Assembly: GCA_051894195.1 (NCBI GenBank)
Contig: JBJFIB010000135.1
Span: 1 to 42,135, forward strand
Length of the DNA stretch: 42,135 bases
Direction: 5' to 3'
Origin: Acutalibacteraceae bacterium
Lineage (GTDB): Bacteria; Bacillota; Clostridia; Oscillospirales; Acutalibacteraceae
Both the position numbers and the translations under genes were made by a program. Positions 1 through 40,790 of this stretch are shown one piece after another (within the stretch, counting starts at the first letter, position 1; each line of letters begins with the position of its first letter). The notes under the pieces were generated by a model, which was not told the DNA's origin, did no database searches, and saw only the letters and a list, made by a program, of their open reading frames with translations.

Positions 1-101
1 TATATATTTGGTACGAATCCGAAATCTATCATTTTGAAAAGTACAACCTTAAACTTAATGATGATTTTATAGAGTATGTGCTGAACAAGGTGAATAAATG
101 A
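1..101 (+). CDS. 3' fragment of a tandem paralog (hypothetical small protein), cut by the window edge
   Basis: The frame ending at TGA 99-101 reads YIWYESEIYHFEKYNLKLNDDFIEYVLNKVNK. This matches the C-termini of the 148..456 and 503..811 products. Confidence 0.6.
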   Translation, partial: YIWYESEIYHFEKYNLKLNDDFIEYVLNKVNK

Positions 102-147
102 ATTTTATACTTGTTATGTTTATTTGAGAAATCAGGAGGTTATGTAA

Positions 148-456
148 ATGCGGTTTATAAGAGATAAATATGTTAATAAACTGACAAAAGAAGAATTAAC
201 TGATAATTTTTCAAGCGAGCCTATAAGTGAAAAAGCAAAAATATTAGAATATATGAAGTCTTTTTCAGAACCTTATGCATTTACTACTCAACCGGTTATT
301 GATGTATTCACAAATGAGGAGCTTGAATATACAGATAATGAATTTTTTGATGGGGTATATTTTTGGTACAAGTCTGAAATATATCATTTTGAAAAGTACA
401 ACCTTAAACTTAATGATGATTTTATAGAGTATGTGCTGAACAAGGTGAATAAATGA
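148..456 (+). CDS. Hypothetical 102-aa protein, tandem paralog copy 2
   Basis: ATG start, with AGGAGG 8 nt upstream. The reading frame is intact and has a conserved paralog. I recognise no family. Confidence 0.7.
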   Translation: MRFIRDKYVNKLTKEELTDNFSSEPISEKAKILEYMKSFSEPYAFTTQPVIDVFTNEELEYTDNEFFDGVYFWYKSEIYHFEKYNLKLNDDFIEYVLNKVNK

Positions 457-502
457 ATTTTATACTTGTTATGTTTATTTGAGAAATCAGGGGGTTTTGT
501 AA

Positions 503-811
503 GTGCAGTTTATAAGAGATAAATATGTTAATGAACTGACAAAAGAAGAATTAGCTGATAATTTTTTAAGCGAGCCTATAAGTGAAAAAGCAAAAATATT
601 AGAATATATGAAGTCTATTTCAGAACCTTACGCATGTACTACTCAACCGGTTGTTGATGTATTCACAAATGAGGAACTTGAATTTGTAGATAATGGTTTT
701 TCTGACGGTGTATATCTTTGGTACAAGTCTGAAATATATCATTTTGAAAAGTACAACCTTAAACTTAATGATGATTTTATAGAGTATGTGCTGAACAAGG
801 TGAATAAATGA
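503..811 (+). CDS. Hypothetical 102-aa protein, tandem paralog copy 3
   Basis: GTG start after AGGGGG. It differs from copy 2 at 12 of 102 residues, all within residues 2-72. The C-terminal 30 residues are identical. Confidence 0.7.
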   Translation: MQFIRDKYVNELTKEELADNFLSEPISEKAKILEYMKSISEPYACTTQPVVDVFTNEELEFVDNGFSDGVYLWYKSEIYHFEKYNLKLNDDFIEYVLNKVNK

Positions 812-859
812 ATGTTTTGAATGTGGTATTTGTCAATTTTTTTGTGTAAGGGGGATTAT

Positions 860-1181: not shown

Positions 1182-1257
1182 TGGAGCTGGAAATGGGACT
1201 TGAACCCACGACTTCCTCATTACGAGTGAGGTACTCTACCAACTGAGTTATTCCAGC
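1182..1257 (-). tRNA. tRNA-Thr, anticodon CGT, with encoded CCA
   Basis: The reverse complement is GCTGGAATAACTCAGTTGGTAGAGTACCTCACTCGTAATGAGGAAGTCGTGGGTTCAAGTCCCATTTCCAGCTCCA. It folds as a 76-nt cloverleaf: acceptor GCTGGAA/TTCCAGC, anticodon stem CCTCA/TGAGG with loop CTCGTAA, and T-arm GTGGG-TTCAAGT-CCCAT. Confidence 0.92.
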
Positions 1258-8090: not shown

Positions 8091-8133
8091 GTTAGTTAGG
8101 AGTGAGGAGTTAGGAGTTGTGCTGACGGTCAGC
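8091..8133 (+). repeat. Heptad-repeat intergenic element, GGA class, GTNAGGA variant
   Basis: GTTAGGA GTGAGGA GTTAGGA GTTGTGC, followed by the near-palindrome TGCTGACGGTCAGC. Confidence 0.8.
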
Positions 8134-8201
8134 TTTGTTGCCGACATAATTTTATGCCCTTATGAATAAACATTATTAAAATGCTGATGTGGGGGCTTAG
8201 T

Positions 8202-8979: not shown

Positions 8980-9007
8980 CGCATTATGCATTACGAATTA
9001 CGCATTT
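8980..9007 (-). repeat. Heptad-repeat element, TAATKCG class, inverted orientation
   Basis: The forward strand reads CGCATTA TGCATTA CGAATTA CGCATTT. This is the reverse complement of four TAATGCG/TAATTCG-type units. Confidence 0.75.
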
Positions 9008-9030: not shown

Positions 9031-10443
9031 ATGATACACAAATACAAACTCGGCGGATATAATATATGCCTTGATGTACACAGCGGTGCGGTTCATATAC
9101 TTGACGATATTGCCTATGATATTCTTGACTACTGCGACGAAAATATGAGCGAACAGCCACCTGAAAAAATGTACACTGAGCTTTCATCAAAATATGATAA
9201 AGACGATTTGACAGAAACATATCAGGCACTGTACTCACTTTATCAGAACGGTCAGCTCTTTTCACCAGATGATTATGAACAGTTTGCCGATATGATGACA
9301 AAAGCACCGATAAAATCAATGTGCATAAACATCTCTCACGACTGTAACCTCAGATGTGAATACTGCTTTGCCGCAAAGGGCGATTTCGGACAGGGACGCT
9401 GTCTTATGTCGTTTGAAACAGCAAAGAAAGCTATTGACTTTATTATTGCAAATTCAGGTACAAGACATAATCTTGAAGTTGACTTTTTCGGCGGCGAACC
9501 GCTGATGAATTTCGATGTTGTCAAAAAGACCGTTGAATACGCAAGAAGTATCGAAAAACAGCACAACAAAAACTTCCGCTTTACAATTACAACAAACGGA
9601 CTTTTGCTTGATGATGATAAAATCGACTACATCAACAAAGAAATGTCAAATGTTGTTTTGTCGCTTGACGGACGAAAAGAAGTTAATGACAGACTGCGTG
9701 TTACACCTAACGGCAAGGGTTCATACGATACTATTGTACCGAAATATCAGAAACTCGTTGCGTCAAGAGGCGACAAGGATTATTATGTCAGAGGTACATT
9801 CACAAAGCATAATCTTGATTTTACAAATGATGTTATGCAAATGAAAAATCTCGGATTTGAACAGCTTTCAATCGAGCCTGTTGTGTCAGACCCTCAGCTT
9901 GATTATTCAATCAAAAATGAGGATTTGCCGGCAGTATTCAATGAATATGAACACCTTGCTGATACAATAATTCAGTCAAGACGCAAGGGCGACTATTTCA
10001 ATTTCTTCCACTTTATGATTGACCTCAACCAAGGTCCCTGTGCAATCAAGCGTCTGCGTGGATGTGGCTGCGGAAACGAATATGTTGCTGTTACACCACA
10101 GGGCGACATCTATCCGTGTCATCAGTTTGTCGGACACGAGGAGTACAAAATGGGCAACCTCAACGACGGCACATTCAACAATGATATGAAACTGATGTTC
10201 GCCAAGGCAAATGTATATTCAAAGGAAAACTGCAAGAATTGTTGGGCAAAATTCTATTGCAGCGGCGGCTGTAACGCAAACAATTTCCAGTATGAAGGCG
10301 ATATTCTTAAATCCCACAAGACTTCCTGCGAGCTTGAAAAGAAACGCCTTGAATGTGCAATTATGATTAAAGCGGCTCTTGCGGATATGCCGTCGGAAAA
10401 CTCACAGTGCGACGGGGACGACTGTTTCGGCGTTTGCAGATAA
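9031..10443 (+). CDS. scfB: SCIFF radical-SAM maturase with a SPASM domain
   Basis: Radical-SAM motif CNLRCEYC, a Cys-rich C-terminal SPASM region (CGCGNEY..., CKNCWAKFYCSGGC), and adjacency to scfA. Confidence 0.93.
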   Translation: MIHKYKLGGYNICLDVHSGAVHILDDIAYDILDYCDENMSEQPPEKMYTELSSKYDKDDLTETYQALYSLYQNGQLFSPDDYEQFADMMTKAPIKSMCINISHDCNLRCEYCFAAKGDFGQGRCLMSFETAKKAIDFIIANSGTRHNLEVDFFGGEPLMNFDVVKKTVEYARSIEKQHNKNFRFTITTNGLLLDDDKIDYINKEMSNVVLSLDGRKEVNDRLRVTPNGKGSYDTIVPKYQKLVASRGDKDYYVRGTFTKHNLDFTNDVMQMKNLGFEQLSIEPVVSDPQLDYSIKNEDLPAVFNEYEHLADTIIQSRRKGDYFNFFHFMIDLNQGPCAIKRLRGCGCGNEYVAVTPQGDIYPCHQFVGHEEYKMGNLNDGTFNNDMKLMFAKANVYSKENCKNCWAKFYCSGGCNANNFQYEGDILKSHKTSCELEKKRLECAIMIKAALADMPSENSQCDGDDCFGVCR

Positions 10444-13346: not shown

Positions 13347-14576
13347 TTGGATAAAAATATATTCTGGATATGGCTGCAATGCTGTCTTGGCGTTGACAAT
13401 CCCCGTATTCACAGAATTTTTGAAGTTTTTGATGACGCTTATCATATATATAACGCCGACGAAAACGAACTCAGAATCAGCGGAGTTTTTTTGCATAAGG
13501 AACTTTTAAAGCTGAATGACAAAAATCTTGATACTGCAAAGAAAATATATAATAAATGTTTTTTGCACGGATATAATATATTTTCTTTACAGGATGAAAA
13601 TTATCCCGACAAGCTCAGAAAAACACCGACACCGCCTGTTGTTATATATGTAAAGGGCAGAATTCCCGATGGGAATCGTCTTTTTGCGGCTATTGTCGGC
13701 ACAAGACATTCAACAATAACAGGCAGGAAAACAGCCTTTTCGCTTGCCTATGACCTTGCAAAAAGCGGTGCGGTTATCGTCAGCGGCGGTGCTATGGGTA
13801 TTGATGCACAGGCTCATCTCGGTGCAATTCAGGCAGGCGGAAAAACCGTGTGTGTGCTTGGCTGTGGAATAAATTACGATTATTTGCCGTCAATGGAAAA
13901 TATCCGCAGCGAAATTTCAAAACACGGTGCATTGATTTCGGAATATCCGCCGGATTATCCGCCGACTAAATTTACATTTCCGAAGCGTAACAGAATTATT
14001 TCGGGAATTTCCGACTGTACGGTTGTCGTTGAGGCGGGAAAAACAAGCGGTGCATTGATTACCGCAAAAGAGGCTGCAAAACAAAACAGAACAATTTTTG
14101 CCGTTCCGGGAAGTATCGAAAGTCAGAGTGCAGTCGGTTCAAATCTTCTTATACAGGAGGGTGCAAAAATACTTCTCAGTGCCGAAAACATTATCGACTG
14201 GTATAATTCAGAAAATCAAAAAAATAATGACGGAAAAATTACAAAAACTCAGATAAACCCCGACTCAATAGCAAACATACGAACCAAATCAGAAAAAAAT
14301 AAAATATTGCCAACAGATGAAAAAACATTGGAAACACACTCTTTATCGCATAAACAGACCGTTAAAGCCGAAAAAAAAGAAAATAAAATTCCCGACGGAC
14401 TGTTGACAGAAAACGCTGTTGCGGTGTATCATACAATTTCAGATACCCCTATTCATGTAAACGACATCAAACTTGCAACAGGCTTAAAGATAAACGATGT
14501 AATTTCAGCACTCTCAGAACTTGAACTGAACGACCTTATTCTTGTTCACTCAGGCAGAAGATACACGAAAAAATAG
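13347..14576 (+). CDS. dprA: DNA-processing protein DprA (Smf)
   Basis: TTG start after GGGGAGAG. The Rossmann core reads IVGTRHST..., SGGAMGIDAQAH, RNRIISG. There is a long Lys/Asn-rich linker and a C-terminal winged-helix-like tail. Confidence 0.9.
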   Translation: MDKNIFWIWLQCCLGVDNPRIHRIFEVFDDAYHIYNADENELRISGVFLHKELLKLNDKNLDTAKKIYNKCFLHGYNIFSLQDENYPDKLRKTPTPPVVIYVKGRIPDGNRLFAAIVGTRHSTITGRKTAFSLAYDLAKSGAVIVSGGAMGIDAQAHLGAIQAGGKTVCVLGCGINYDYLPSMENIRSEISKHGALISEYPPDYPPTKFTFPKRNRIISGISDCTVVVEAGKTSGALITAKEAAKQNRTIFAVPGSIESQSAVGSNLLIQEGAKILLSAENIIDWYNSENQKNNDGKITKTQINPDSIANIRTKSEKNKILPTDEKTLETHSLSHKQTVKAEKKENKIPDGLLTENAVAVYHTISDTPIHVNDIKLATGLKINDVISALSELELNDLILVHSGRRYTKK

Positions 14577-14620
14577 AGTGGAGTGTGGAGAGTGGAGTGT
14601 GGAGTTGTACGAACCGTCAG
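14576..14620 (+). repeat. Heptad-repeat intergenic element, GGA class
   Basis: GAGTGGA GTGTGGA GAGTGGA GTGTGGA GTTGTAC GAACCGTCAG. The first G is the last base of the dprA TAG stop. Confidence 0.9.
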
Positions 14621-14696: not shown

Positions 14697-16790
14697 ATGT
14701 CAAAACTCGTAATAGTTGAGTCGCCTGCAAAGGCTAAAACAATCAAAAAATATCTTGGTAAAGGATATGAAGTTGTTGCGTCAATGGGACATGTAAGGGA
14801 TCTTAACCCGAACAGACTCAGCGTTGATATAAAAAAGAAATTTGCACCGAAATATGAAATAATAAAAGGCAAAGAAAAACTTGCAGACGAACTTGTTAAA
14901 CTCGCCGAAAAAAGCGACTATGTTTATCTTGCAACCGACCCCGATAGAGAGGGAGAGGCTATTTCGTGGCATCTTGCTTATCTTCTTAATCTTGACCTTA
15001 ACGACAGCAACAGAGTAACCTTTAACGAAATTACACAAACCGGCGTAACAAACGGAATGAGTTCGCCGAGAAAGATTGATATGGATTTGGTGAACGCACA
15101 GCAGGCAAGAAGAATTCTTGACCGACTTGTAGGTTATAAGCTCAGTCCGTTCCTTTCACAGAAAATAAGAAAAGGTCTGTCGGCAGGTCGTGTTCAGTCG
15201 GTTGCCGTGAGAATTATCGTTGACAGGGAAGAACAGATAAGAGCGTTTGTGCCTGAGGAATATTGGAGCATTGACGCAAAATTTATTCCAAAGGGTGAAC
15301 GCAAGGCTTTTCCTGCGGCTTTTTACGGCGACAGAAAAGGAAAAATAAAAATTACAAGTTCGGAACAGGCACATCAGATTCTTGATTCCATAAAAGACGC
15401 ACAACCTGTTGTCGAAAAGGTAAAGCACGGCACAAGAAAGCGTCAGCCTGCATCGCCTTTTATCACCTCAACTTTACAGCAGGAGGCGTCAAGAAAACTC
15501 GGTTTTCAGTCAAAGCGTACAATGAAAGTTGCACAGGAACTTTATGAAGGCGTTGACATCAAGGATATGGGTGCCGTCGGTCTTATAACATATATGAGAA
15601 CCGACTCTTTAAGACTATCTGAGGACGCTCTCAATGCCGCCGAATCATTTATCAGGGCAAAATGGGGCGACAAATATGTTCCGGCACAGCACAGACATTT
15701 CAAGTCAAGGGCTAACGCACAGGACGGACACGAGGCTATCCGTCCGACAATGATTGACCTTGAACCGTCACAGATAAAAGACAGCCTTACAAACGACCAG
15801 TACAAGCTCTACAAACTTATATGGGAGCGTTTTATTGCGTGTCAGATGGCTGAGTGTATTCAGAAAACAACACAGGCTGACATAGCTGTCAATGATTATA
15901 TTTTTAAAGCATCAGGCTACCGTGTAAGTTTTGACGGCTATACAGTCCTTTATGTTGAAAGCAAGGACACAGCCGACGACGAAAAGGAATCCGAACTTCC
16001 GACGCTTGAATCGGGAACAATCCTCAGAGTAAAGGAAATGACACCCAATCAGCATTTCACACAGCCGCCTGCACGATATACCGAGGCATCACTCATCAAA
16101 GCACTTGAAGAATACGGAATAGGCAGACCGTCAACCTATGCGGCAACAATCAGCACGATTACTTCAAGAGAATATGTCAAGCGTGAGGGCAAAACCCTTA
16201 TCCCGACGGAACTCGGCGAGGTTTCAACAAAGCTGATGGAGGAGCGTTTCCCGAAGATAGTAAATGTAAAATTCACCGCTCAGATGGAGCAAAATCTTGA
16301 TACGGTTGAAGAGGGCAAATGCGAATGGGTACAGTTACTGACTGATTTTTACGGCGATTTTGACAAAACGCTCAAAAAGGCAAAGGAAGAAATGAAAGGC
16401 GTCAAAATCGAGCTTGAAGAGGACAAAACCGACCTTATCTGCGACAAATGCGGAAAGCCTATGGTTGTAAAATTCGGACGATACGGAAAATTTATTGCTT
16501 GTTCGGGTTATCCTGACTGTAAAAATATCGTTAAGATTGTCAATAAGACTGGTGTTCCATGTCCGAAGTGTAACGGTGATGTTATCGTCAAAAAGACGAA
16601 AAAGGGCAGAGTATTTTACGGCTGTTCAAACTATCCGAACTGCGACTTTGTTTCGTGGTATGAACCTGTAAACGAAAAATGCCCACAATGCAACGCCATA
16701 CTTTTCAAGAAAAAAGGCAAAAAGCCAAAACTTTTCTGTCAGACAGAGGGCTGCGGTTTTGAAAAAGATGCAGCCGAAAGCAACGAATAA
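14697..16790 (+). CDS. topA: DNA topoisomerase I
   Basis: TOPRIM N-terminus MSKLVIVESPAKAKTIKKYLG, the active-site region, and C-terminal Cys4 zinc ribbons (CDKCGKPM..., CPKCNGD..., CPQCNA...). Confidence 0.97.
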   Translation: MSKLVIVESPAKAKTIKKYLGKGYEVVASMGHVRDLNPNRLSVDIKKKFAPKYEIIKGKEKLADELVKLAEKSDYVYLATDPDREGEAISWHLAYLLNLDLNDSNRVTFNEITQTGVTNGMSSPRKIDMDLVNAQQARRILDRLVGYKLSPFLSQKIRKGLSAGRVQSVAVRIIVDREEQIRAFVPEEYWSIDAKFIPKGERKAFPAAFYGDRKGKIKITSSEQAHQILDSIKDAQPVVEKVKHGTRKRQPASPFITSTLQQEASRKLGFQSKRTMKVAQELYEGVDIKDMGAVGLITYMRTDSLRLSEDALNAAESFIRAKWGDKYVPAQHRHFKSRANAQDGHEAIRPTMIDLEPSQIKDSLTNDQYKLYKLIWERFIACQMAECIQKTTQADIAVNDYIFKASGYRVSFDGYTVLYVESKDTADDEKESELPTLESGTILRVKEMTPNQHFTQPPARYTEASLIKALEEYGIGRPSTYAATISTITSREYVKREGKTLIPTELGEVSTKLMEERFPKIVNVKFTAQMEQNLDTVEEGKCEWVQLLTDFYGDFDKTLKKAKEEMKGVKIELEEDKTDLICDKCGKPMVVKFGRYGKFIACSGYPDCKNIVKIVNKTGVPCPKCNGDVIVKKTKKGRVFYGCSNYPNCDFVSWYEPVNEKCPQCNAILFKKKGKKPKLFCQTEGCGFEKDAAESNE

Positions 16791-16800
16791 TCATACTATA

Positions 16801-16829
16801 TTGTAAAAACCGCTAATATATGGTAAAAT
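16801..16829 (+). promoter_or_regulatory. Putative promoter for trmFO
   Basis: TTGTAA, 17 nt, TGgTAAAAT. It would place the heptad element and the conserved hairpin inside a ~190-nt leader. Confidence 0.4.
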
Positions 16830-16830
16830 A

Positions 16831-16866
16831 TAATGCGTAATTCGTAATGCGTAATGCGTAATTATT
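16831..16866 (+). repeat. Heptad-repeat intergenic element, TAATKCG class
   Basis: TAATGCG TAATTCG TAATGCG TAATGCG TAATTAT. The tail is loosely similar to the one after 27598 (…GAC..AAGTTTG.TG.G.TGA). Confidence 0.9.
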
Positions 16867-16981
16867 ATTGCGGACATTAAGTTTGTGCGTTGAATTTTGG
16901 TTTGATGCAAAATTCAGTTGTTGCGTGTAAAAATACAATACACTGATTTTGCGGAAAATGACTTAACGGTAAAAATAACTT

Positions 16982-17012
16982 TGAACGCAATTCGGGTGCG
17001 GCAGCTTGCCGC
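16982..17012 (+). repeat. Conserved 31-nt hairpin module, copy 1
   Basis: TGAACGCAATTCGGGTGCGGCAGCTTGCCGC is identical to 36375..36405. The core hairpin is GCGGCA-GCT-TGCCGC. Confidence 0.9.
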
Positions 17013-17028
17013 TGGAGGTGGAGTTGTT

Positions 17029-18339
17029 GTGTATATAAATGTGCTTGGTGCAGGTCTTGCAGGTTGCGAGGCGGCATATCAGATTGCAAAGCGTGGAATA
17101 AATGTAAAACTGTATGAAATGAAGCCGTCAAAGAAAACAGCGGCTCATAAAAGTAATAATTTTTGTGAACTTATATGTTCAAATTCGCTGAAAGCGGCGA
17201 GAATTGAAAGTGCCGCCGGACTTCTCAAAGAGGAAATGCGTAGAATAGGCTCACTGCTTATGGAATGTGCCGATAAATGTGCCGTTCCGGCAGGTGGTGC
17301 ATTGGCGGTTGACAGGGACGAATTTTCGTCAATGGTAACAAATGCAATACGCAATAATCCGCTGATTGAAGTTATCGAAAGCGAGATTACGGAAATTCCG
17401 CACGATGCAATTACAGTTGTTGCGACAGGACCGCTTACAAGCGACAAACTTGCCGACAGAATTATTGAAATGTGCGGAGGTTCACTGCACTTTTTTGATG
17501 CTGCTGCACCTATCGTTACCGCTGAAAGCATTGATATGAATTGTGCATTTACCGCCTCACGCTATGACAAAGGCGGAGATGATGCATACATCAACTGCCC
17601 TATGAACAAAGAGGAATACGAAAATTTCCACAGGGAGCTTGTTTCGGCTGAGCGTGCAGAACTGCACGATGTTGATGTGCAAAATCCGAAAGTTTATGAG
17701 GGTTGTATGCCTGTTGAAATTCTTGCACAGCGTGGACTTGACACCTTGCGTTTCGGACCTATGAAACCTGTCGGACTGCGTGACCCACGAACAAACCACA
17801 GACCGTGGGCAGTTTTACAGCTCAGAACCGAAAATTCCGACAAAACAATGTACAATCTTGTAGGCTTTCAGACAAACCTCAAATTCCCAGAACAAAAGCG
17901 TGTTTTCGGAATGATACCGGCACTGAAAAATGCCGAATATGTCCGTTTCGGAGTAATGCACAGAAATACATTCCTCGATTCGCCACGGGTTCTTAATTCC
18001 GATTATTCGATGAAGTCAAATCCGAAAATATTTTTTGCCGGTCAGATGACAGGTGTTGAGGGATATATGGAGTCGGCGTCGTCGGGAATGATGGCAGGCA
18101 TAAATGCCGTAAAACGACTGAAAAATGAAGAAACGGTAACGCTGTCAGATATGAATATGATTGGTGCATTGTCAAGATATATAAGCAATCCTACTGTAAC
18201 CGATTTTCAGCCTATGGGTGCAAATATGGGAATACTTCCACCGCTTTCAGAACATATAAGAGATAAAAGAGAGAGAGCGGCGGCATATTCACACAGGGCA
18301 TTGGCTGAACTTGAAAATATAAAAACTTTGCTTAAATGA
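17029..18339 (+). CDS. trmFO: Methylenetetrahydrofolate--tRNA-(uracil54-C5)-methyltransferase TrmFO (Gid)
   Basis: GTG 17029 follows GGAGGTGGAG. The N-terminus VYINVLGAGLAGCEAAYQIAKRG is a FAD-binding GxGxxG motif, and the ~436-aa length is typical. The ORF-track start at 16918 reads through repeat elements. Confidence 0.92.
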   Translation: MYINVLGAGLAGCEAAYQIAKRGINVKLYEMKPSKKTAAHKSNNFCELICSNSLKAARIESAAGLLKEEMRRIGSLLMECADKCAVPAGGALAVDRDEFSSMVTNAIRNNPLIEVIESEITEIPHDAITVVATGPLTSDKLADRIIEMCGGSLHFFDAAAPIVTAESIDMNCAFTASRYDKGGDDAYINCPMNKEEYENFHRELVSAERAELHDVDVQNPKVYEGCMPVEILAQRGLDTLRFGPMKPVGLRDPRTNHRPWAVLQLRTENSDKTMYNLVGFQTNLKFPEQKRVFGMIPALKNAEYVRFGVMHRNTFLDSPRVLNSDYSMKSNPKIFFAGQMTGVEGYMESASSGMMAGINAVKRLKNEETVTLSDMNMIGALSRYISNPTVTDFQPMGANMGILPPLSEHIRDKRERAAAYSHRALAELENIKTLLK

Positions 18340-20052: not shown

Positions 20053-21062
20053 AACATTCAAATGTAGCACTTTTTGTACCTCATAACGGCTGTCCTCATC
20101 AGTGCAGTTTCTGCAATCAGCGAACAATCACAGGAAAAAACGAACAGCCGACAGCACAAGATGTAAAAAATGCAATAGAAACAGCCGAGAACAGTCTTGG
20201 TGAAAATACAAAAAATGCCGAAATAGCTTTTTTTGGCGGCAGCTTTACGGCAATAGACAGAAATTATATGATTGAACTTCTTGAAGCGGCTGCACCGTCA
20301 GTGCATAGCGGAAGATTTTACGGCATAAGAATTTCAACCCGACCTGACGCAATCGACAGCGAAATCCTCGATATTCTTCAAAAATACGGCGTTACCGCTG
20401 TTGAACTCGGGGCTCAGAGTATGAGTGACGAGGTGCTTTATGCAAACCACAGAGGACATACTTCGGCTGATATTGTAAATGCGTCAACGATGATAAAAGA
20501 GCGTGGTATGTCGCTCGGCTTGCAGATGATGACGGGACTTTATAAAAGTGATGACGAAAAAGACACGGAAACAGCGGAAAAAATTGCCGCCTTAAAGCCT
20601 GATACAGTACGCATTTATCCTACAATAGTCCTTAAAGGAACGGAACTTTACGACCTCTATGTCAGCGGAAAATATCAGCCGCAAACGCTTGACGAGGGTG
20701 TAAGATTGTGTTCAAAGCTGCTTAAATACTTTGAGGACAGAAACATAAATGTTATCCGTCTTGGACTTCACGACAGCGACAGTCTGCGTGAAAATATGGC
20801 GGCAGGTGCATATCACCCTGCGTTCCGTGAACTCTGCGAAAGCGAGATTATGTACAACAACGCTCTTGAAGAACTCGAAAAAATGAACATAAAATTCGGC
20901 GTTGTCGAATTTTTCATAAATCCGAAATCGGTTTCACGCTTTATCGGTCAGAAACGAAAAAATCTTGACCGCCTTTCAAAGCTGGGTATAACGGCGGTTG
21001 TGCGTCAGGACTCACGGCTCTCAAAATATCAGACCGTATGCCGATATGTACCGCAAATTTGA
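20049..21062 (+). CDS. Radical SAM protein (ELP3/coproporphyrinogen-oxidase-like superfamily), function unknown
   Basis: N-terminal CPHQCSFC is a CxxxCxxC motif, followed by GGSFT. The TTG start overlaps the rnc stop. Confidence 0.8.
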   Translation: MKHSNVALFVPHNGCPHQCSFCNQRTITGKNEQPTAQDVKNAIETAENSLGENTKNAEIAFFGGSFTAIDRNYMIELLEAAAPSVHSGRFYGIRISTRPDAIDSEILDILQKYGVTAVELGAQSMSDEVLYANHRGHTSADIVNASTMIKERGMSLGLQMMTGLYKSDDEKDTETAEKIAALKPDTVRIYPTIVLKGTELYDLYVSGKYQPQTLDEGVRLCSKLLKYFEDRNINVIRLGLHDSDSLRENMAAGAYHPAFRELCESEIMYNNALEELEKMNIKFGVVEFFINPKSVSRFIGQKRKNLDRLSKLGITAVVRQDSRLSKYQTVCRYVPQI

Positions 21063-21108
21063 GAGTGGAGTGTGGAGAGTGGAGTGTGGAGTTGTGCAAA
21101 AGGTCAGC
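21061..21108 (+). repeat. Heptad-repeat intergenic element, GGA class
   Basis: GAGTGGA GTGTGGA GAGTGGA GTGTGGA GTTGTGC AAAAGGTCAGC. It starts immediately after the TGA at 21060-21062. Its 33-nt core is identical to 14576..14608. Confidence 0.9.
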
Positions 21109-26934: not shown

Positions 26935-27566
26935 AAATTCTTATGCTGTGCGGAAGTCCACGACCACAAAAAAGTACATCACACTATTTACTCAATGTAC
27001 TGAAAGAAAGATTGTGTAATGAAAATGAAATTCTGATGTGCAATATTGCGGGAAAAAATCCGGATATTGAACGGACTGTTCTGGAAAATGCGGAAGATGT
27101 TGATGTAATTGTTGCTGCATTTCCGCTGTATGTTGACAGTATTCCGGGAAGTTTTCTGAGAGTGCTTGAAAATATTGAAAAACAGATTAAGGAGCATAAA
27201 GTCGATTGCAAGTTGTATGTTATTGTCAATAACGGATTTTATGATGCAAAACAAAACAGTATTGCTATTGATATTATGTGGAACTGGTGTGAAAAATGCG
27301 GTATGACAAAGGGCAGAGCAATAGCTGTTGGTGCAGGAGAAATGGTACAGGGCATACCGCTCGGAGCAGGACCGATGAAAAATCTTGGAAACGCTATAAA
27401 TCAGTTTACTGATGATATACAACACAGAAATACCGGCGAAACAATTTTTGTTGAACCGAATTTCCCGAGATTTTTATATAAAACAGCGGCACATATGGGT
27501 TGGCACAGAAATGCAAAAAAGAACGGTCTTAAAATTTCAGATATTAAGAAAACAGATATAAAATAA
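26931..27566 (+). CDS. Flavodoxin-like NAD(P)H-dependent oxidoreductase family protein
   Basis: MKILMLCGSPRPQKSTSHYLL is an FMN phosphate-loop type sequence. There is a 4-nt ATGA overlap with the upstream gene. Confidence 0.65.
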   Translation: MKILMLCGSPRPQKSTSHYLLNVLKERLCNENEILMCNIAGKNPDIERTVLENAEDVDVIVAAFPLYVDSIPGSFLRVLENIEKQIKEHKVDCKLYVIVNNGFYDAKQNSIAIDIMWNWCEKCGMTKGRAIAVGAGEMVQGIPLGAGPMKNLGNAINQFTDDIQHRNTGETIFVEPNFPRFLYKTAAHMGWHRNAKKNGLKISDIKKTDIK

Positions 27567-27600
27567 TTCGTAATGCGTAATTCGTAATGCGTAATTATTG
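27564..27600 (+). repeat. Heptad-repeat intergenic element, TAATKCG class
   Basis: TAATTCG TAATGCG TAATTCG TAATGCG TAATTAT. The first TAA is the stop codon of the 26931..27566 gene. Confidence 0.9.
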
Positions 27601-27966: not shown

Positions 27967-27994
27967 TTTCAACTTTCCATTTTCCATTTTCAAT
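27967..27994 (+). repeat. Heptad-repeat intergenic element, TTTCMAY class
   Basis: TTTCAAC TTTCCAT TTTCCAT TTTCAAT (then TTACTCG), beginning 5 nt after the yhbY stop. Confidence 0.8.
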
Positions 27995-32610: not shown

Positions 32611-32647
32611 CTACAACTCCACTCTCCACTCTCCACACTCCACACTG
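32611..32647 (-). repeat. Heptad-repeat element, GGA class, inverted orientation
   Basis: The forward strand reads ACAAC TCCACTC TCCACTC TCCACAC TCCACAC. This is the reverse complement of GTGTGGA GTGTGGA GAGTGGA GAGTGGA GTTGT. Confidence 0.9.
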
Positions 32648-32667
32648 AAAAAAGGGGGTTAATATAT

Positions 32668-36306: not shown

Positions 36307-36374
36307 TATTTTTGACTGTATAATTTTTAAGCAGTCTGATATGCGGAAATTATCTTGCTGTTATATAATAAGTC

Positions 36375-36419
36375 TGAACGCAATTCGGGTGCGGCAGCTT
36401 GCCGCCGAATTACGCATTA
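36375..36419 (+). repeat. Conserved 31-nt hairpin module, copy 2, fused to two inverted TAATKCG heptads
   Basis: 36375..36405 is identical to 16982..17012. Here the flank CGAATT extends the helix by pairing with AATTCG, and is followed by CGAATTA CGCATTA (36406..36419). Confidence 0.9.
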
Positions 36420-36440
36420 GTTATGTTGGGAGATGTGTTT

Positions 36441-37136
36441 ATGTTATTAAGTCTGATTTTATCGGGTAATTTTAATTTTAATACAGCAATTACCTGTATT
36501 CTGGCGTCACTTATTGTAATATTCCTTGTACTGCCGTTTCACGAATATGCACACGGCTTTGTTGCATATAAGCTCGGCGACAATACAGCAAAAAGAATGG
36601 GAAGACTCTCGCTCAATCCGCTTGAACATCTGGATTATGCGGGTGCATTACTGCTTATATTTATCGGTTTCGGCTGGGCAAAGCCTGTTCCGATTGACGA
36701 CAGAAATTTCAAAAATCCAAAAGCCGGAATGGCTATAACTGCCCTTGCCGGTCCTGTTGCTAACCTTATCGCAGCTATTGTTGCAGGTTTGATTTATAAT
36801 GCGATTATTGCTTTTGTGGGTATGATTACAATACTTACAAATCAGTTCTGGTTTTATGTGCTTATGTTCTTTCAGTATCTTATGATAATAAATATTGGTC
36901 TTGCGGTGTTTAACCTTATACCTATTCCGCCGCTTGACGGTTCAAAGATACTTATGGCTTTTCTGCCCGACAGAATTGTTGATAAGATTTATCAGTATCA
37001 GCAGTTTTTCTCAATGGGACTTTTTATACTTGTTATGATGGGCGGACTCAGCGGCGGATTTATCACATCAATTCAGAACTGGCTGTTTAACGGTATTAAC
37101 TGGCTGACTGCATTACCGTTTTCATTTATGCATTAA
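36441..37136 (+). CDS. Site-2 protease family (M50) membrane metalloprotease
   Basis: ATG 36441 lies 7 nt after GGGAGA. It has multiple TM helices, HEYAHG (HExxH) and NLIPIPPLDGSK. The ORF-track TTG at 36399 sits inside the repeat hairpin. Confidence 0.85.
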   Translation: MLLSLILSGNFNFNTAITCILASLIVIFLVLPFHEYAHGFVAYKLGDNTAKRMGRLSLNPLEHLDYAGALLLIFIGFGWAKPVPIDDRNFKNPKAGMAITALAGPVANLIAAIVAGLIYNAIIAFVGMITILTNQFWFYVLMFFQYLMIINIGLAVFNLIPIPPLDGSKILMAFLPDRIVDKIYQYQQFFSMGLFILVMMGGLSGGFITSIQNWLFNGINWLTALPFSFMH

Positions 37137-39642: not shown

Positions 39643-40770
39643 TATTTCCGAAAAATAACGGCATTTATGCTTTCAATTTTTACGGTGTTTCTTTGTGCTT
39701 TTTCGTCTGGAAATAAGACAACCGCTGTTTCAACCTCAGCGTCAGCGGCAATACTCTATTGTGCGGACAGCGGTGAAATTCTCTACGAAAAAAATCCGCA
39801 CGAAAAACGAGCAATAGCAAGCATAACAAAAATTATGACAGCAATTATTGCACTGGAATATGCCGCAGTCAACAACAAAGAAGTGAAATTTACATCTGAA
39901 ATGTCTGCAATAGGTTCGAGTATGTATCTCAAAGAGGGAGAAATACTCACACTTACCGAGCTTACAAAGGGAATGATGATGGTGTCGGGAAATGACGCCG
40001 CAAATGCTGTTGCAATTTCGGTTGCGGGCAGTACAGAAAAATTTGCGGAACTTATGAACCAAAAGGCACAGCAAATCGGAATGAAAGACACACACTTTGT
40101 CACGCCGTCGGGACTTGACGACGAAAATCACTATTCGACGGCGTATGATATGGCACTTTTGTGTTCGTATGCGATGGATAACGAGCAGTTCAGAAATATC
40201 GTTTCTCAAAAAAGCATAAAGGTTTCATACATTTATCCCGAGAACAAAACTCAGATATGCACAAATCACAACAGACTTCTGTCAATTTATGATGACTGCG
40301 TAGGAATTAAAACAGGTTTTACCGAAAAAGCAGGTAGAACGCTGACCTCAGCCGCCGAGCGTGACGGAATAAGGCTTATTGCCGTGACACTGAATGACGG
40401 AAACGACTGGAATGACCATTCGGCATTGTATGACTACGGCTTTTCGCTTGTCGAGCGTGTTCAGCTTTCAACAAAATATAAAAGCATTGATGTTGCACTT
40501 GTCGGTGCTGAACAGAACAGCGTTACTGTTGTGCCTTATTCACAGGCAGAGGCAACCGTTATGAAAAACGATATAAGCAAAATAGAAGAAAAAATCTATC
40601 TTCCACGATTTGTTTATGCACCTGTAAAAAAGGGCAGTACAGTCGGAAAAATTGTTTATACCTTAAACGGAAAAGTGATTTCCGAAACAAAACTTATTGC
40701 ATCGTCTGATGTACAGGCACAGACAGCGGAAAAACACTGGTACGATTTTTTGAAACTAAGATTATTTTAA
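39631..40770 (+). CDS. D-alanyl-D-alanine carboxypeptidase (S11, DacB/DacF-like)
   Basis: SITK is the SxxK motif, SGND the SxN motif and KTGFT the KTG motif. There is an N-terminal signal or anchor sequence. The start is uncertain because GTG 39631 lies inside the terminator 3' arm; TTG 39640 or ATG 39667 are possible. Confidence 0.88.
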   Translation: MIFLYFRKITAFMLSIFTVFLCAFSSGNKTTAVSTSASAAILYCADSGEILYEKNPHEKRAIASITKIMTAIIALEYAAVNNKEVKFTSEMSAIGSSMYLKEGEILTLTELTKGMMMVSGNDAANAVAISVAGSTEKFAELMNQKAQQIGMKDTHFVTPSGLDDENHYSTAYDMALLCSYAMDNEQFRNIVSQKSIKVSYIYPENKTQICTNHNRLLSIYDDCVGIKTGFTEKAGRTLTSAAERDGIRLIAVTLNDGNDWNDHSALYDYGFSLVERVQLSTKYKSIDVALVGAEQNSVTVVPYSQAEATVMKNDISKIEEKIYLPRFVYAPVKKGSTVGKIVYTLNGKVISETKLIASSDVQAQTAEKHWYDFLKLRLF

Positions 40771-40790
40771 TTATGCATTATGAATTATAA
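40769..40790 (-). repeat. Degenerate, inverted TAATKCG-class heptads
   Basis: The forward strand reads TGCATTA TGAATTA directly after the dacB-like stop. There are only two decayed units. Confidence 0.35.

Follow-up and report, generated by a model that had tools for sequence, protein, structure and literature searches.

The DNA considered here (the window) is a stretch of 42,135 nucleotides from an Acutalibacteraceae bacterium whose genes include dprA, topA, trmFO, a radical-SAM gene upstream of smc, and the gene for a site-2 (M50) protease. An identical 31-mer (TGAACGCAATTCGGGTGCGGCAGCTTGCCGC) is present on the + strand at 16982-17012, upstream of trmFO (copy 1), and at 36375-36405, upstream of the M50 gene (copy 2), confirming the exact repeat described in an earlier sequence-only reading. 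No third copy was found in the window with up to 3 mismatches allowed, and 100 shuffles yielded 0 matches. The core hairpin of the 31-mer, GCGGCA-GCT-TGCCGC, is likewise limited within the window to these two sites, with a fold energy of -9.5 kcal/mol for RNA and of about -7 to -8 for DNA. Both copies are in the sense orientation, 16 nt (copy 1) and 35 nt (copy 2) from the start codon. The assignment of the RBS and GTG next to copy 1 to trmFO is borne out, as GTG 17029 opens a 436-aa TrmFO (PF01134) and the closest homologues are called at 436 aa; ATG 36441 opens a 231-aa M50 protease (homologues called at 229–231 aa). The N-terminal extensions that open reading frames acquire by running through the module, ...LNAIRVRQLAAGG... 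and (L/M)PPNYALVM, had rightly been regarded as false, as the homologues are called without them. The features of the window are collected in Table 1.

Table 1. Repeat modules and gene-start signals in the 42,135-nt window.
Feature	Position	Strand	Remarks
AGGAGTK heptad array	8094..8135	+	Directly after terminator T-run; followed by GTGCTGACGGTCAG tail
Inverted TAATKCG-type array	8980..9007	-	Gene starting at 9031 has its RBS about 12 nt downstream
GGAGWGT heptad array	14573..14607	+	Same repeat system; begins at TAG stop of dprA
Sigma-70-type promoter-like site, TTGTAA-17-TAAAAT with TG	16801..16829	+	Native trmFO leader, outside the repeat
TAATKCG heptad array	16831..16866	+	4 units plus a degenerate one; first module
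Middle modules (B/C)	16867..16945	+	Align with full-length copies in L005, L010, L003, L009
Hairpin unit (D unit), copy 1	16946..17012	+	nhmmer E=8e-23; exact 31-mer; hairpin covariation
Copy 1 hairpin	16998-17012	+	
Heptad-like TGGAGGTGGAGTTGTTGTG	17013..17031	+	SD GGAGG 17014-17018 and GGAG 17020-17023; GTG 17029
GGAGWGT heptad array	21060..21094	+	Begins at TGA stop of radical-SAM gene upstream of smc
TAATKCG heptad array	27564..27598	+	First TAA is the upstream gene's stop; truncated B module next
Inverted GGAGWGT array	32614..32648	-	Just 5' of the next gene's RBS
GTATAAT, -10-like box	36316..36322	+	Upstream of insertion point; shared with empty site
Hairpin unit (D unit), copy 2	36340..36405	+	nhmmer E=5e-19; without heptad and B/C modules
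Copy 2 hairpin	36391-36405	+	
Two inverted TAATKCG heptads	36406..36419	-	CGAATTACGCATTA on + strand
SD GGGAG (36428-36432) and ATG (36441), M50 protease gene	36428..36443	+	
Short inverted TAATKCA-type heptads	40774..40787	-	Between stop codon (40768-40770) and next RBS

The two window copies stay alike for about 35 nt 5' of the 31-mer (27 of 41 aligned columns, 66% identity), and this continued likeness indicates that the repeated unit is about 66 nt in length rather than 31. Copies in other genomes give the unit a consensus of GTGCGGAAAATGACTTAACGGTAACAATAACTTTGAACGCAATTCGGGT followed by the hairpin, and its conserved 3' end is made of the 6-bp GC hairpin with the short sequence TTTGAACGCAATTCGGGT flanking it; conservation among units extends to the TTGCGG and GGTAACAAT blocks. 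The 31-mer is the 3' end of this hairpin unit and is no free-standing module, so that the exact repeat seen by the sequence-only reading stands while its 31-nt extent does not.

The hairpin itself is real and is supported by covariation. Across 14 distinct unit ends, 96.4% of the cells of the 6-bp stem with its 3-nt loop are paired, a value reached by 0 of 500 shuffles and well separated from slid controls (30–57% paired). Five of the six stem pairs are changed on both sides (GC/CG, CG/UA, GC/AU, CG/AU, AU/GC), and the stem variants among copies include GCGGCA, GTGGCG, CCGGCG, GCAGA, and CGGAG, with G-U pairs among them. Because the stem letters vary while the pairing stays, the conserved feature is a folded single strand (RNA or ssDNA) and not a sequence-specific duplex site. 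The compensatory changes show that the hairpin is selectively maintained, while the remainder of the element drifts.

No convincing structure was found elsewhere in the element, and fold z-scores are unremarkable (-0.8, +0.66, and -1.1). A global RNA structure of the ~190-nt element was considered and rejected, with single-sequence z-scores of -0.8 and -1.96 and an RNAalifold covariation term of +2.68, which is a penalty. A long-range pairing between the B and D modules was also rejected; it is 92% complementary over 13 nt in L005 and is lost in L009, L010, and the window copy. A short closing helix within the unit (UGCG/CGCA) shows one compensatory case only.

In copy 1 the hairpin unit is the last module of a mosaic of about 190 nt, composed of a heptad array, two middle modules, and the hairpin unit, that fills nearly all of the topA-trmFO spacer. 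Full elements of ~155–190 nt can be aligned across window copy 1, L005, L010, L003, and two L009 copies; full-length copies in other loci begin with different heptad sequences, and each element carries one to four hairpin units after the heptads and B/C modules. Copy 2 consists only of a hairpin unit, to which an inverted pair of heptads is joined.

The heptads extend well beyond the two hairpin sites. Ten runs of at least 3 units are present in the 42-kb window, eight of which belong to the described families, while shuffles give about none; all eight are intergenic and overlap at most a stop codon. Seven runs were found in 17.6 kb of L012 and none in ~70 kb of sister-lineage DNA (L013–L015, L017, L018). 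At least six heptad sequences co-exist (TAATKCG, GGAGWGT, AGGAGTK, AATTATG, GAATTAG, and TAAGAGT), with one wobble position each, and in the dprA-topA and radical-SAM-smc spacers the heptad family of the window differs from that of L012. Direct arrays start exactly at the upstream stop codon (window positions 14574, 21060, and 27564; L012 positions 3912, 10367, and 15842) or at a terminator T-run, and inverted arrays adjoin the next RBS. This hugging of gene boundaries may reflect tolerated space combined with microhomology (AATAA, TAG, GGAG).

The distribution of the unit in other genomes was probed with its 22-mer core, and the loci carrying units were found through exact matches to this core. 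A scan of species-representative genomes returned 11 exact matches on both strands in 4 rumen MAGs: seven in Acutalibacteraceae LOHA31_bin.016 (JBJEOP01), two in 'Clostridia' SUG1651 (JAQXZA01), and one in each of the 'Ruminococcus sp.' MAGs RUG11404 and RUG14171. Matches to all 31 nt number 6 in LOHA31_bin.016, at unrelated sites, and 2 in SUG1651, one of which (L007) is orthologous to copy 1. When some 70 kb of fetched DNA was searched with an nhmmer profile, ~25 related units emerged, and the hairpin sequence differs in many of them. Where units cluster, they stand as direct tandems of two to four: L001 has a 66-nt period (Tandem Repeats Finder counts 3.7 copies, nhmmer 4 units), L006 has 2 copies with the same period (nhmmer hit spacing), L003 has 1.9 copies with a 96-nt period, and L004 has 3 units. 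Several other readings of these repeats were rejected. The 66-nt period equals 22 codons, and a coding interpretation fails as the + strand has stops in all frames and the sole open frame on the - strand in L001 is not kept at other sites. A CRISPR array is inconsistent with the whole 66-nt period being repeated at 84% identity with no unique spacers. An intrinsic terminator would need a U-tract, and the stem is followed by TGGAGG or CGAATT, with the hairpin left unflagged by two terminator scans. An integron attC site was rejected on anatomy.

Placement relative to genes is varied. At ~10 independent sites a sense unit precedes a co-directional gene whose start lies 11–265 nt away, with several copies besides the window pair at 11–57 nt; at 3 independent sites it is antisense between co-directional genes. 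Overall, the orientation is sense at ~10 of 13 sites with co-directional or downstream flanking genes. Units are also found after terminators, and for at least five units the hairpin end lies no more than 3 nt from, or overlaps, the stop codon of a convergent gene. The esterase of L002 and the pseudouridine synthase of L006 read 13–14 codons into an inverted unit, and both proteins end in ...GKLPHPNCVQ. Many copies at random positions relative to genes had been named beforehand as the mark of a plain dispersed repeat, and this is largely the pattern seen, with the 31-mer at no fewer than eight other sites in two MAGs.

Searches beyond these genomes were negative. A degenerate pattern of the unit's 5' flank gave one match in JGI metagenomes, within an unrelated coding region, and no match was obtained in viral contigs, phage genomes, or plasmid collections; the repeat is not obviously phage- or plasmid-borne. 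Rfam returned only noise at the gathering threshold and at E<=10, and the literal sequence strings were not found in full-text papers. An exact look-up of the TopA protein of the window returned no record. The 10 neighboring ORFs scanned encode ParB-like, ParA, and HTH proteins, an M78 peptidase, and sugar enzymes, with no Y1 transposase, TnpB, RAYT, or other transposase among them.

Syntenic loci gathered via TrmFO, M50, and EF-P homologues allow the same spacers to be compared across lineages. The topA-trmFO spacer is 238 nt in the window and contains the full element. The same element, with a single heptad only, is present in L007 (TrmFO 97% identical); L012 (95%) has a 125-nt spacer containing heptads and a short tail, no hairpin unit, and its own RBS and ATG; L013 and L014 (91%) have a 77-nt spacer with no repeat; and L015 (88%) has an extra ORF and no repeat. 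In front of the M50 gene, the unit is kept in three loci conspecific with the window (L016, L020, and L021) with a few SNPs and an indel, including GAACAC inside the 31-mer of L016; efp of L020 is 97% identical to the window at the nucleotide level. L019 (M50 93%), from the same sample as L012, has 4–5 inverted heptads and no hairpin unit, and the leader in L017 and L018 (M50 83%) reads ...GTATAATAAAAACAGTTTGAT/AAAAAAGGAGATG with no repeat. Taken across loci, lineages ~89% DNA-identical to the window have other modules in the same spacers, and those at ~80% have none. Because the orthologous leaders of sister lineages lack the hairpin unit, both window copies are shown to be recent insertions between an existing promoter region and an RBS, and the recent spread that had been proposed is upheld.

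The signals on either side of the insertions differ in their history. The promoter-like site of trmFO has a conserved counterpart in L007 and L012, and element-free L013 has a different promoter at this position. In the M50 leader, the GTATAAT box is shared with the empty site and is consequently native; it is a putative promoter element, which a promoter scan did not flag. The dprA-topA site is AGAAAATAA/ATATCCGG when empty and ...AAAATAA-element-AAGAATAA/ATATCCGG when filled, consistent with a 2–8 bp duplication or with chance in AT-rich DNA. No target-site duplication is recognizable at the M50 site, and an inverted-repeat search found internal arms only, none of which pair the element ends.

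At trmFO, copy 1 provides the SD and the GTG start. The RBS and start of trmFO differ in L012 and L013, both of which use ATG, and it is clear that the window lineage has lost an ancestral AGAGGTGAAACA-ATG in favor of a repeat-derived GGAGGTGGAGTTGTT-GTG. The ending ...GGAGTTGT that follows copy 1 also closes the GGAGWGT arrays at 14601 and 21088, and the heptad-like GGAGGTGGAGTTGTTGTG beside copy 1 was probably co-opted as the SD and start codon of trmFO. At the M50 gene, the GGGAG lies 8 nt 3' of the inverted heptads, and a perfect TATAAT is found 7–8 nt upstream of the 31-mer.

Collectively, these results indicate that the 31-mer is, with a probability of roughly 80%, the end of a modular, lineage-specific, selfish or neutral interspersed repeat and not a dedicated regulator of trmFO or the M50 gene. 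The element is dispersed, occurs in both orientations, can be amplified in tandem, and is present or absent at orthologous sites. Within a narrow group of uncultured Clostridia from the rumen (Acutalibacteraceae/'Ruminococcus' MAGs), the spaces between genes are filled by full elements and fragments. As selfish or neutral DNA, the element would spread between spacers through a trans-acting enzyme that recognizes the hairpin, or through template switching or gene conversion between copies, and the two identical 31-mers would reflect recent descent from the same dominant subfamily. Mobility is deduced from the presence/absence patterns only, since the ORFs scanned include no transposase and neither terminal inverted repeats nor a clear target-site duplication could be recognized. 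In transcripts that carry the stem-loop in their 5' UTR or after a stop codon, it may alter mRNA stability or RBS access as a side effect.

The repeat represents a previously undescribed family of a known kind, that of the REP/BIME-, BOX-, and STRR-like interspersed repeats. Its closest functional analogues include the BOX, RUP, and SPRITE repeats of Streptococcus pneumoniae (Croucher et al. 2011, PMC3049150), which are modular, parasitic, and lineage-specific and alter the ends of genes. Like BOX, the present element is small, non-coding, and modular, resides in a Firmicute, contains an internal module in variable tandem number, is confined to a narrow lineage and almost missing from sister species, has no transposase of its own, and is intergenic, co-transcribed with its neighbors, and able to modify gene ends. 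In contrast to BOX, in which the terminal modules A and C are complementary, the element runs in one direction, from a heptad array to a single terminal hairpin, and the hairpin unit is low-copy. The resemblance is functional only, and no sequence similarity is expected. Small size, non-autonomy, a tandem unit amplified within the element, and insertions that differ among strains are shared with MITEs that have an internal minisatellite, such as those of Porphyromonas gingivalis (PMC4596501). MITEs are, however, defined by terminal inverted repeats and target-site duplications; none of the former was found here, and the ~8-bp duplication that may exist at a single site is ambiguous. A riboswitch or attenuator class was rejected on the basis of absence from orthologous leaders, no covariation-supported structure beyond one hairpin, and no Rfam match.

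The flanking heptads, and not the 31-mer, recall other repeats. Cyanobacterial STRR sequences are likewise intergenic heptanucleotide tandem repeats. TAACTGA heptamer repeats, known from Beggiatoaceae, Cyanobacteria, and Bacteroidetes (MacGregor 2015, PMC4679880), similarly form lineage-specific blooms of intergenic arrays of 2–8 heptamers, frequently beside start codons or RBSs, and have an untested, proposed post-transcriptional role. Unlike the TAACTGA arrays, the heptads described here comprise six or more sequences, are joined to non-heptad modules and the hairpin unit, and, in direct arrays, have a stop codon or a terminator T-run as their exact starting point.

Some observations sit less easily with selfish or neutral DNA. 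One is that placement is non-random, with elements ending exactly at stop codons or beside an RBS; together with the sense bias, this could reflect selection for a role at the RNA level. Another, which runs against plain neutral decay, is that the 31-mer is identical at non-orthologous sites across species while the 5' half of the unit is 66% identical between the window copies. This identity points to constraint on, or continual re-copying of, the 3' part, and part of it is ascertainment, as the loci were found through the exact 22-mer. A more active reading of the repeat is kept alive by this identity and by the TTGAT-like words that precede units, and it carries a small share of the probability.

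One specific account of how the repeat would spread is that the unit is a REP/REPIN-type or IS200/IS605-derived (PATE-like) sequence, in which a Y1 (HUH) transposase or RAYT, its gene lying elsewhere in the genome, recognizes the hairpin as an ssDNA structure and copies the unit next to a short target. ISDra2 inserts 3' of TTGAT. The units follow TTGAT, CTGAT, or CTAAT, and the empty M50 site in L017 and L018 (...CAGTTTGAT/AAAAAAGGAGATG), which is the single informative junction, ends in TTTGAT exactly at the insertion point. Retention of the hairpin by covariation rather than sequence, the conserved 5' flank, the lack of terminal inverted repeats and of a clear duplication, the canonical 31-mer shared across species, and the orientation bias along the direction of genes are all consistent with this mode of spread. 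REP, BIME, and REPIN sequences are short, GC-rich extragenic hairpins with compensatory changes that form mosaics with other motifs, are often located directly 3' of stop codons, and are plausibly RNA stem-loops (PMC2817692, PMC3116915, PMC3733652). The anatomy of the unit is different, however. The GTAG or CGTC tag that defines these sequences (PMC3733652) is absent beside the stem, which is preceded by ...AATTCGGGT and followed by variable sequence. The hairpin is 15 nt in length compared to palindromes of 20–40 bp in REPs. One hairpin is present per unit, at the 3' end, instead of the left- and right-end subterminal hairpins of IS200/IS605 and PATE elements or the inverted doublets of REPINs, and the units are amplified as direct tandems rather than as the alternating or inverted pairs of BIMEs. 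REPs usually exceed 100 per genome (PMC2817692), whereas the exact core 22-mer, in a count confined to undiverged copies, has 1–7 matches per species-representative MAG. The host is a Clostridial bacterium, and the tagged REPs are predominantly found in Proteobacteria (PMC3733652). In addition, the ORFs checked encode neither Y1 transposase nor TnpB. This origin is considered unlikely.

It is also conceivable, if somewhat more doubtful, that the heptads and the covarying hairpin unit belong together in a single, hitherto undescribed repeat system of gene boundaries, actively maintained by a hairpin-specific Y1/HUH-type enzyme with a TTGAT-like target or by an RNA/ssDNA-binding protein. Such a system would seed at stop codons, terminator T-runs, and RBSs and would rewrite stops, SD sites, and starts genome-wide, and the cross-species identity of the 31-mer would reflect protein recognition and not recent copying alone.

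The sequence-only reading had proposed that the hairpin is a dedicated cis-regulatory leader RNA that controls translation initiation of trmFO and the M50 gene. The sense orientation and start-proximal position of both window copies, and of the copies 11–57 nt upstream of other genes, fit this proposal. In copy 1, the fold with the module lowers the predicted unpaired probability of the second SD (17020-17023) from 0.47 to 0.19, because the unit's flank or stem is predicted to pair with GGAGUUGUUGU; in the predicted fold, flank ACGCAAUUC pairs with GGAGUUGUUGUG and covers this SD, while the first SD stays at 0.62. In copy 2, the flanking heptads do extend the stem as had been described, with CGAATT pairing with AATTCG and the inverted heptads pairing with CGCAATTCG, yet the predicted accessibility of the SD is unchanged (0.54–0.63 compared to 0.61). 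The predicted fall in SD accessibility is seen for copy 1 only, and the models offer no consistent mechanism of SD occlusion across the two copies. Against dedicated control are the absence of the unit from orthologous leaders of close relatives (TrmFO 95, 91, and 88%; M50 93 and 83% identity), the dispersal of units on both strands as antisense copies, tandems, copies after terminators, and copies inside the 3' ends of convergent genes, the unremarkable z-scores, the lack of an Rfam match, and the restriction of covariation to a simple hairpin. A dedicated regulatory role is therefore improbable.

Two further alternatives are given very little weight. The palindromic GCGGCA-N3-TGCCGC core could be a double-stranded DNA binding site (an operator or a nucleoid-associated or partition-type site) with heptads as cooperative protein-binding arrays, for which the omega repressor of inc18 plasmids provides a precedent, and the four-unit array of L001 lies between a parB-like gene and parA; the divergence of stem sequences with pairing retained, G-U included, and the presence of six or more unrelated heptad sequences in one genome argue against such a site. 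Equally remote is a multi-copy sRNA gene or mobile promoter, in which each unit would carry a weak promoter (TTGCGG-16/17-AACAAT, or the perfect TATAAT of copy 2) and a hairpin-protected 5' end: the conserved TTGCGG and GGTAACAAT blocks are compatible with it, but the promoter scan left the units unflagged, most copies match 3–4 of 6 positions per hexamer, the hairpin lacks the U-tract that would terminate an sRNA, and tandem and antisense copies argue against a gene.

The preferred interpretation, that of a selfish or neutral interspersed repeat, does not on present evidence open a new kind of mechanism. The repeats yield false N-terminal extensions (trmFO and the M50 gene), add real C-terminal tails, and replace native RBSs and starts, so the family needs to be masked if gene callers are not to be led astray on rumen MAGs. 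The window and its relatives provide a clean, datable case of intergenic repeat turnover in which a repeat has probably been co-opted to give a housekeeping gene its SD and start codon, and they contribute an example from Clostridia to the heptamer-array blooms of intergenic DNA, which are so far unexplained.

The hairpin units, dispersed intergenic repeats of ~66 nt, are preceded by the words TTGAT, CTGAT or CTAAT in the window and in L002 and L003, two loci from other rumen MAGs. In a sister lineage (L017), whose M50 protease leader is free of the element, the last letters before the precise point of insertion are TTTGAT. ISDra2 targets TTGAT, and the words found 5' of the hairpin units recall this target in a comparison with one informative site. 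In a further rumen locus (L001), approximately four hairpin units lie in tandem with a 66-nt period (3.7 copies, Tandem Repeats Finder) between parA and a ParB-like (noc/spo0J-type) gene. These units are preceded by a heptad array, which itself has a terminator upstream, and a terminator-like hairpin is located downstream of the last unit.

Several heptad families (including TAATKCG, GGAGWGT and AGGAGTK) form arrays whose positions coincide exactly with gene boundaries, both in the window and in the topA-trmFO locus L012 (TrmFO identity 95%). Every family has a single wobble position, and a given spacer can be occupied by one family in the window and by another in L012. Direct arrays begin at or within a stop codon, which can itself be the first TAA of the array; some others start from a terminator T-run, and inverted arrays adjoin the next RBS. 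Another 7-nt periodic run, TTTCCAT x3 in the yhbY-nadD spacer, is kept in the window and L012 and is missing from L013 and L015 (TrmFO identity 91% and 88%).

Elsewhere in the window, a unit of 355 nt is repeated in tandem (about 2.3 copies, 89-96% identity), with a 102-aa ORF in each unit; these ORFs have no Pfam match and look like small tandem paralogous genes. The sole Rfam match in the window is a tRNA gene.

Positions of repeats and neighboring features
Feature	Locus	Positions
Word before hairpin unit	Window	36338-36345
Word before hairpin unit	L002, L003	
TTTGAT leader end	L017	3890-3900
Tandem hairpin units	L001	5716-5957
Inverted hairpin unit at gene end	L002	7859-7900
Inverted hairpin unit at gene end	L006	4506-4547
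Heptad arrays	Window	8094-8135, 8980-9007, 14573-14607, 16831-16866, 21060-21094, 27564-27598, 32614-32648, 40774-40787
Heptad arrays	L012	3912, 10367, 15842
TTTCCAT run	Window	27972-27992
TTTCCAT run	L012	about 16250-16275
trmFO RBS and start	Window	17013-17031
trmFO RBS and start	L012	6300-6335
trmFO RBS and start	L013	6430-6458
177-aa ORF	L015	9404-9937
355-nt repeat	Window	1-831
102-aa ORFs	Window	148-456, 503-811
tRNA gene (-)	Window	1185-1257

Hairpin units also enter coding sequence. Two unrelated genes, encoding an Abhydrolase_3 esterase (L002) and a pseudouridine synthase (L006), extend into an inverted unit, and their products share an acquired C-terminal tail, ...GKLPHPNCVQ(NS/SN)-stop.

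In L015, the topA-trmFO spacer holds an additional ORF of 177 aa that belongs to no Pfam family. No two of the three lineages compared share the RBS and start of trmFO (GGAGGTGGAGTTGTT-GTG in the window, TAGGAGAATTTATG-ATG in L012 and AGAGGTGAAACA-ATG in L013). The translation-initiation region of this housekeeping gene is replaced through repeat turnover.
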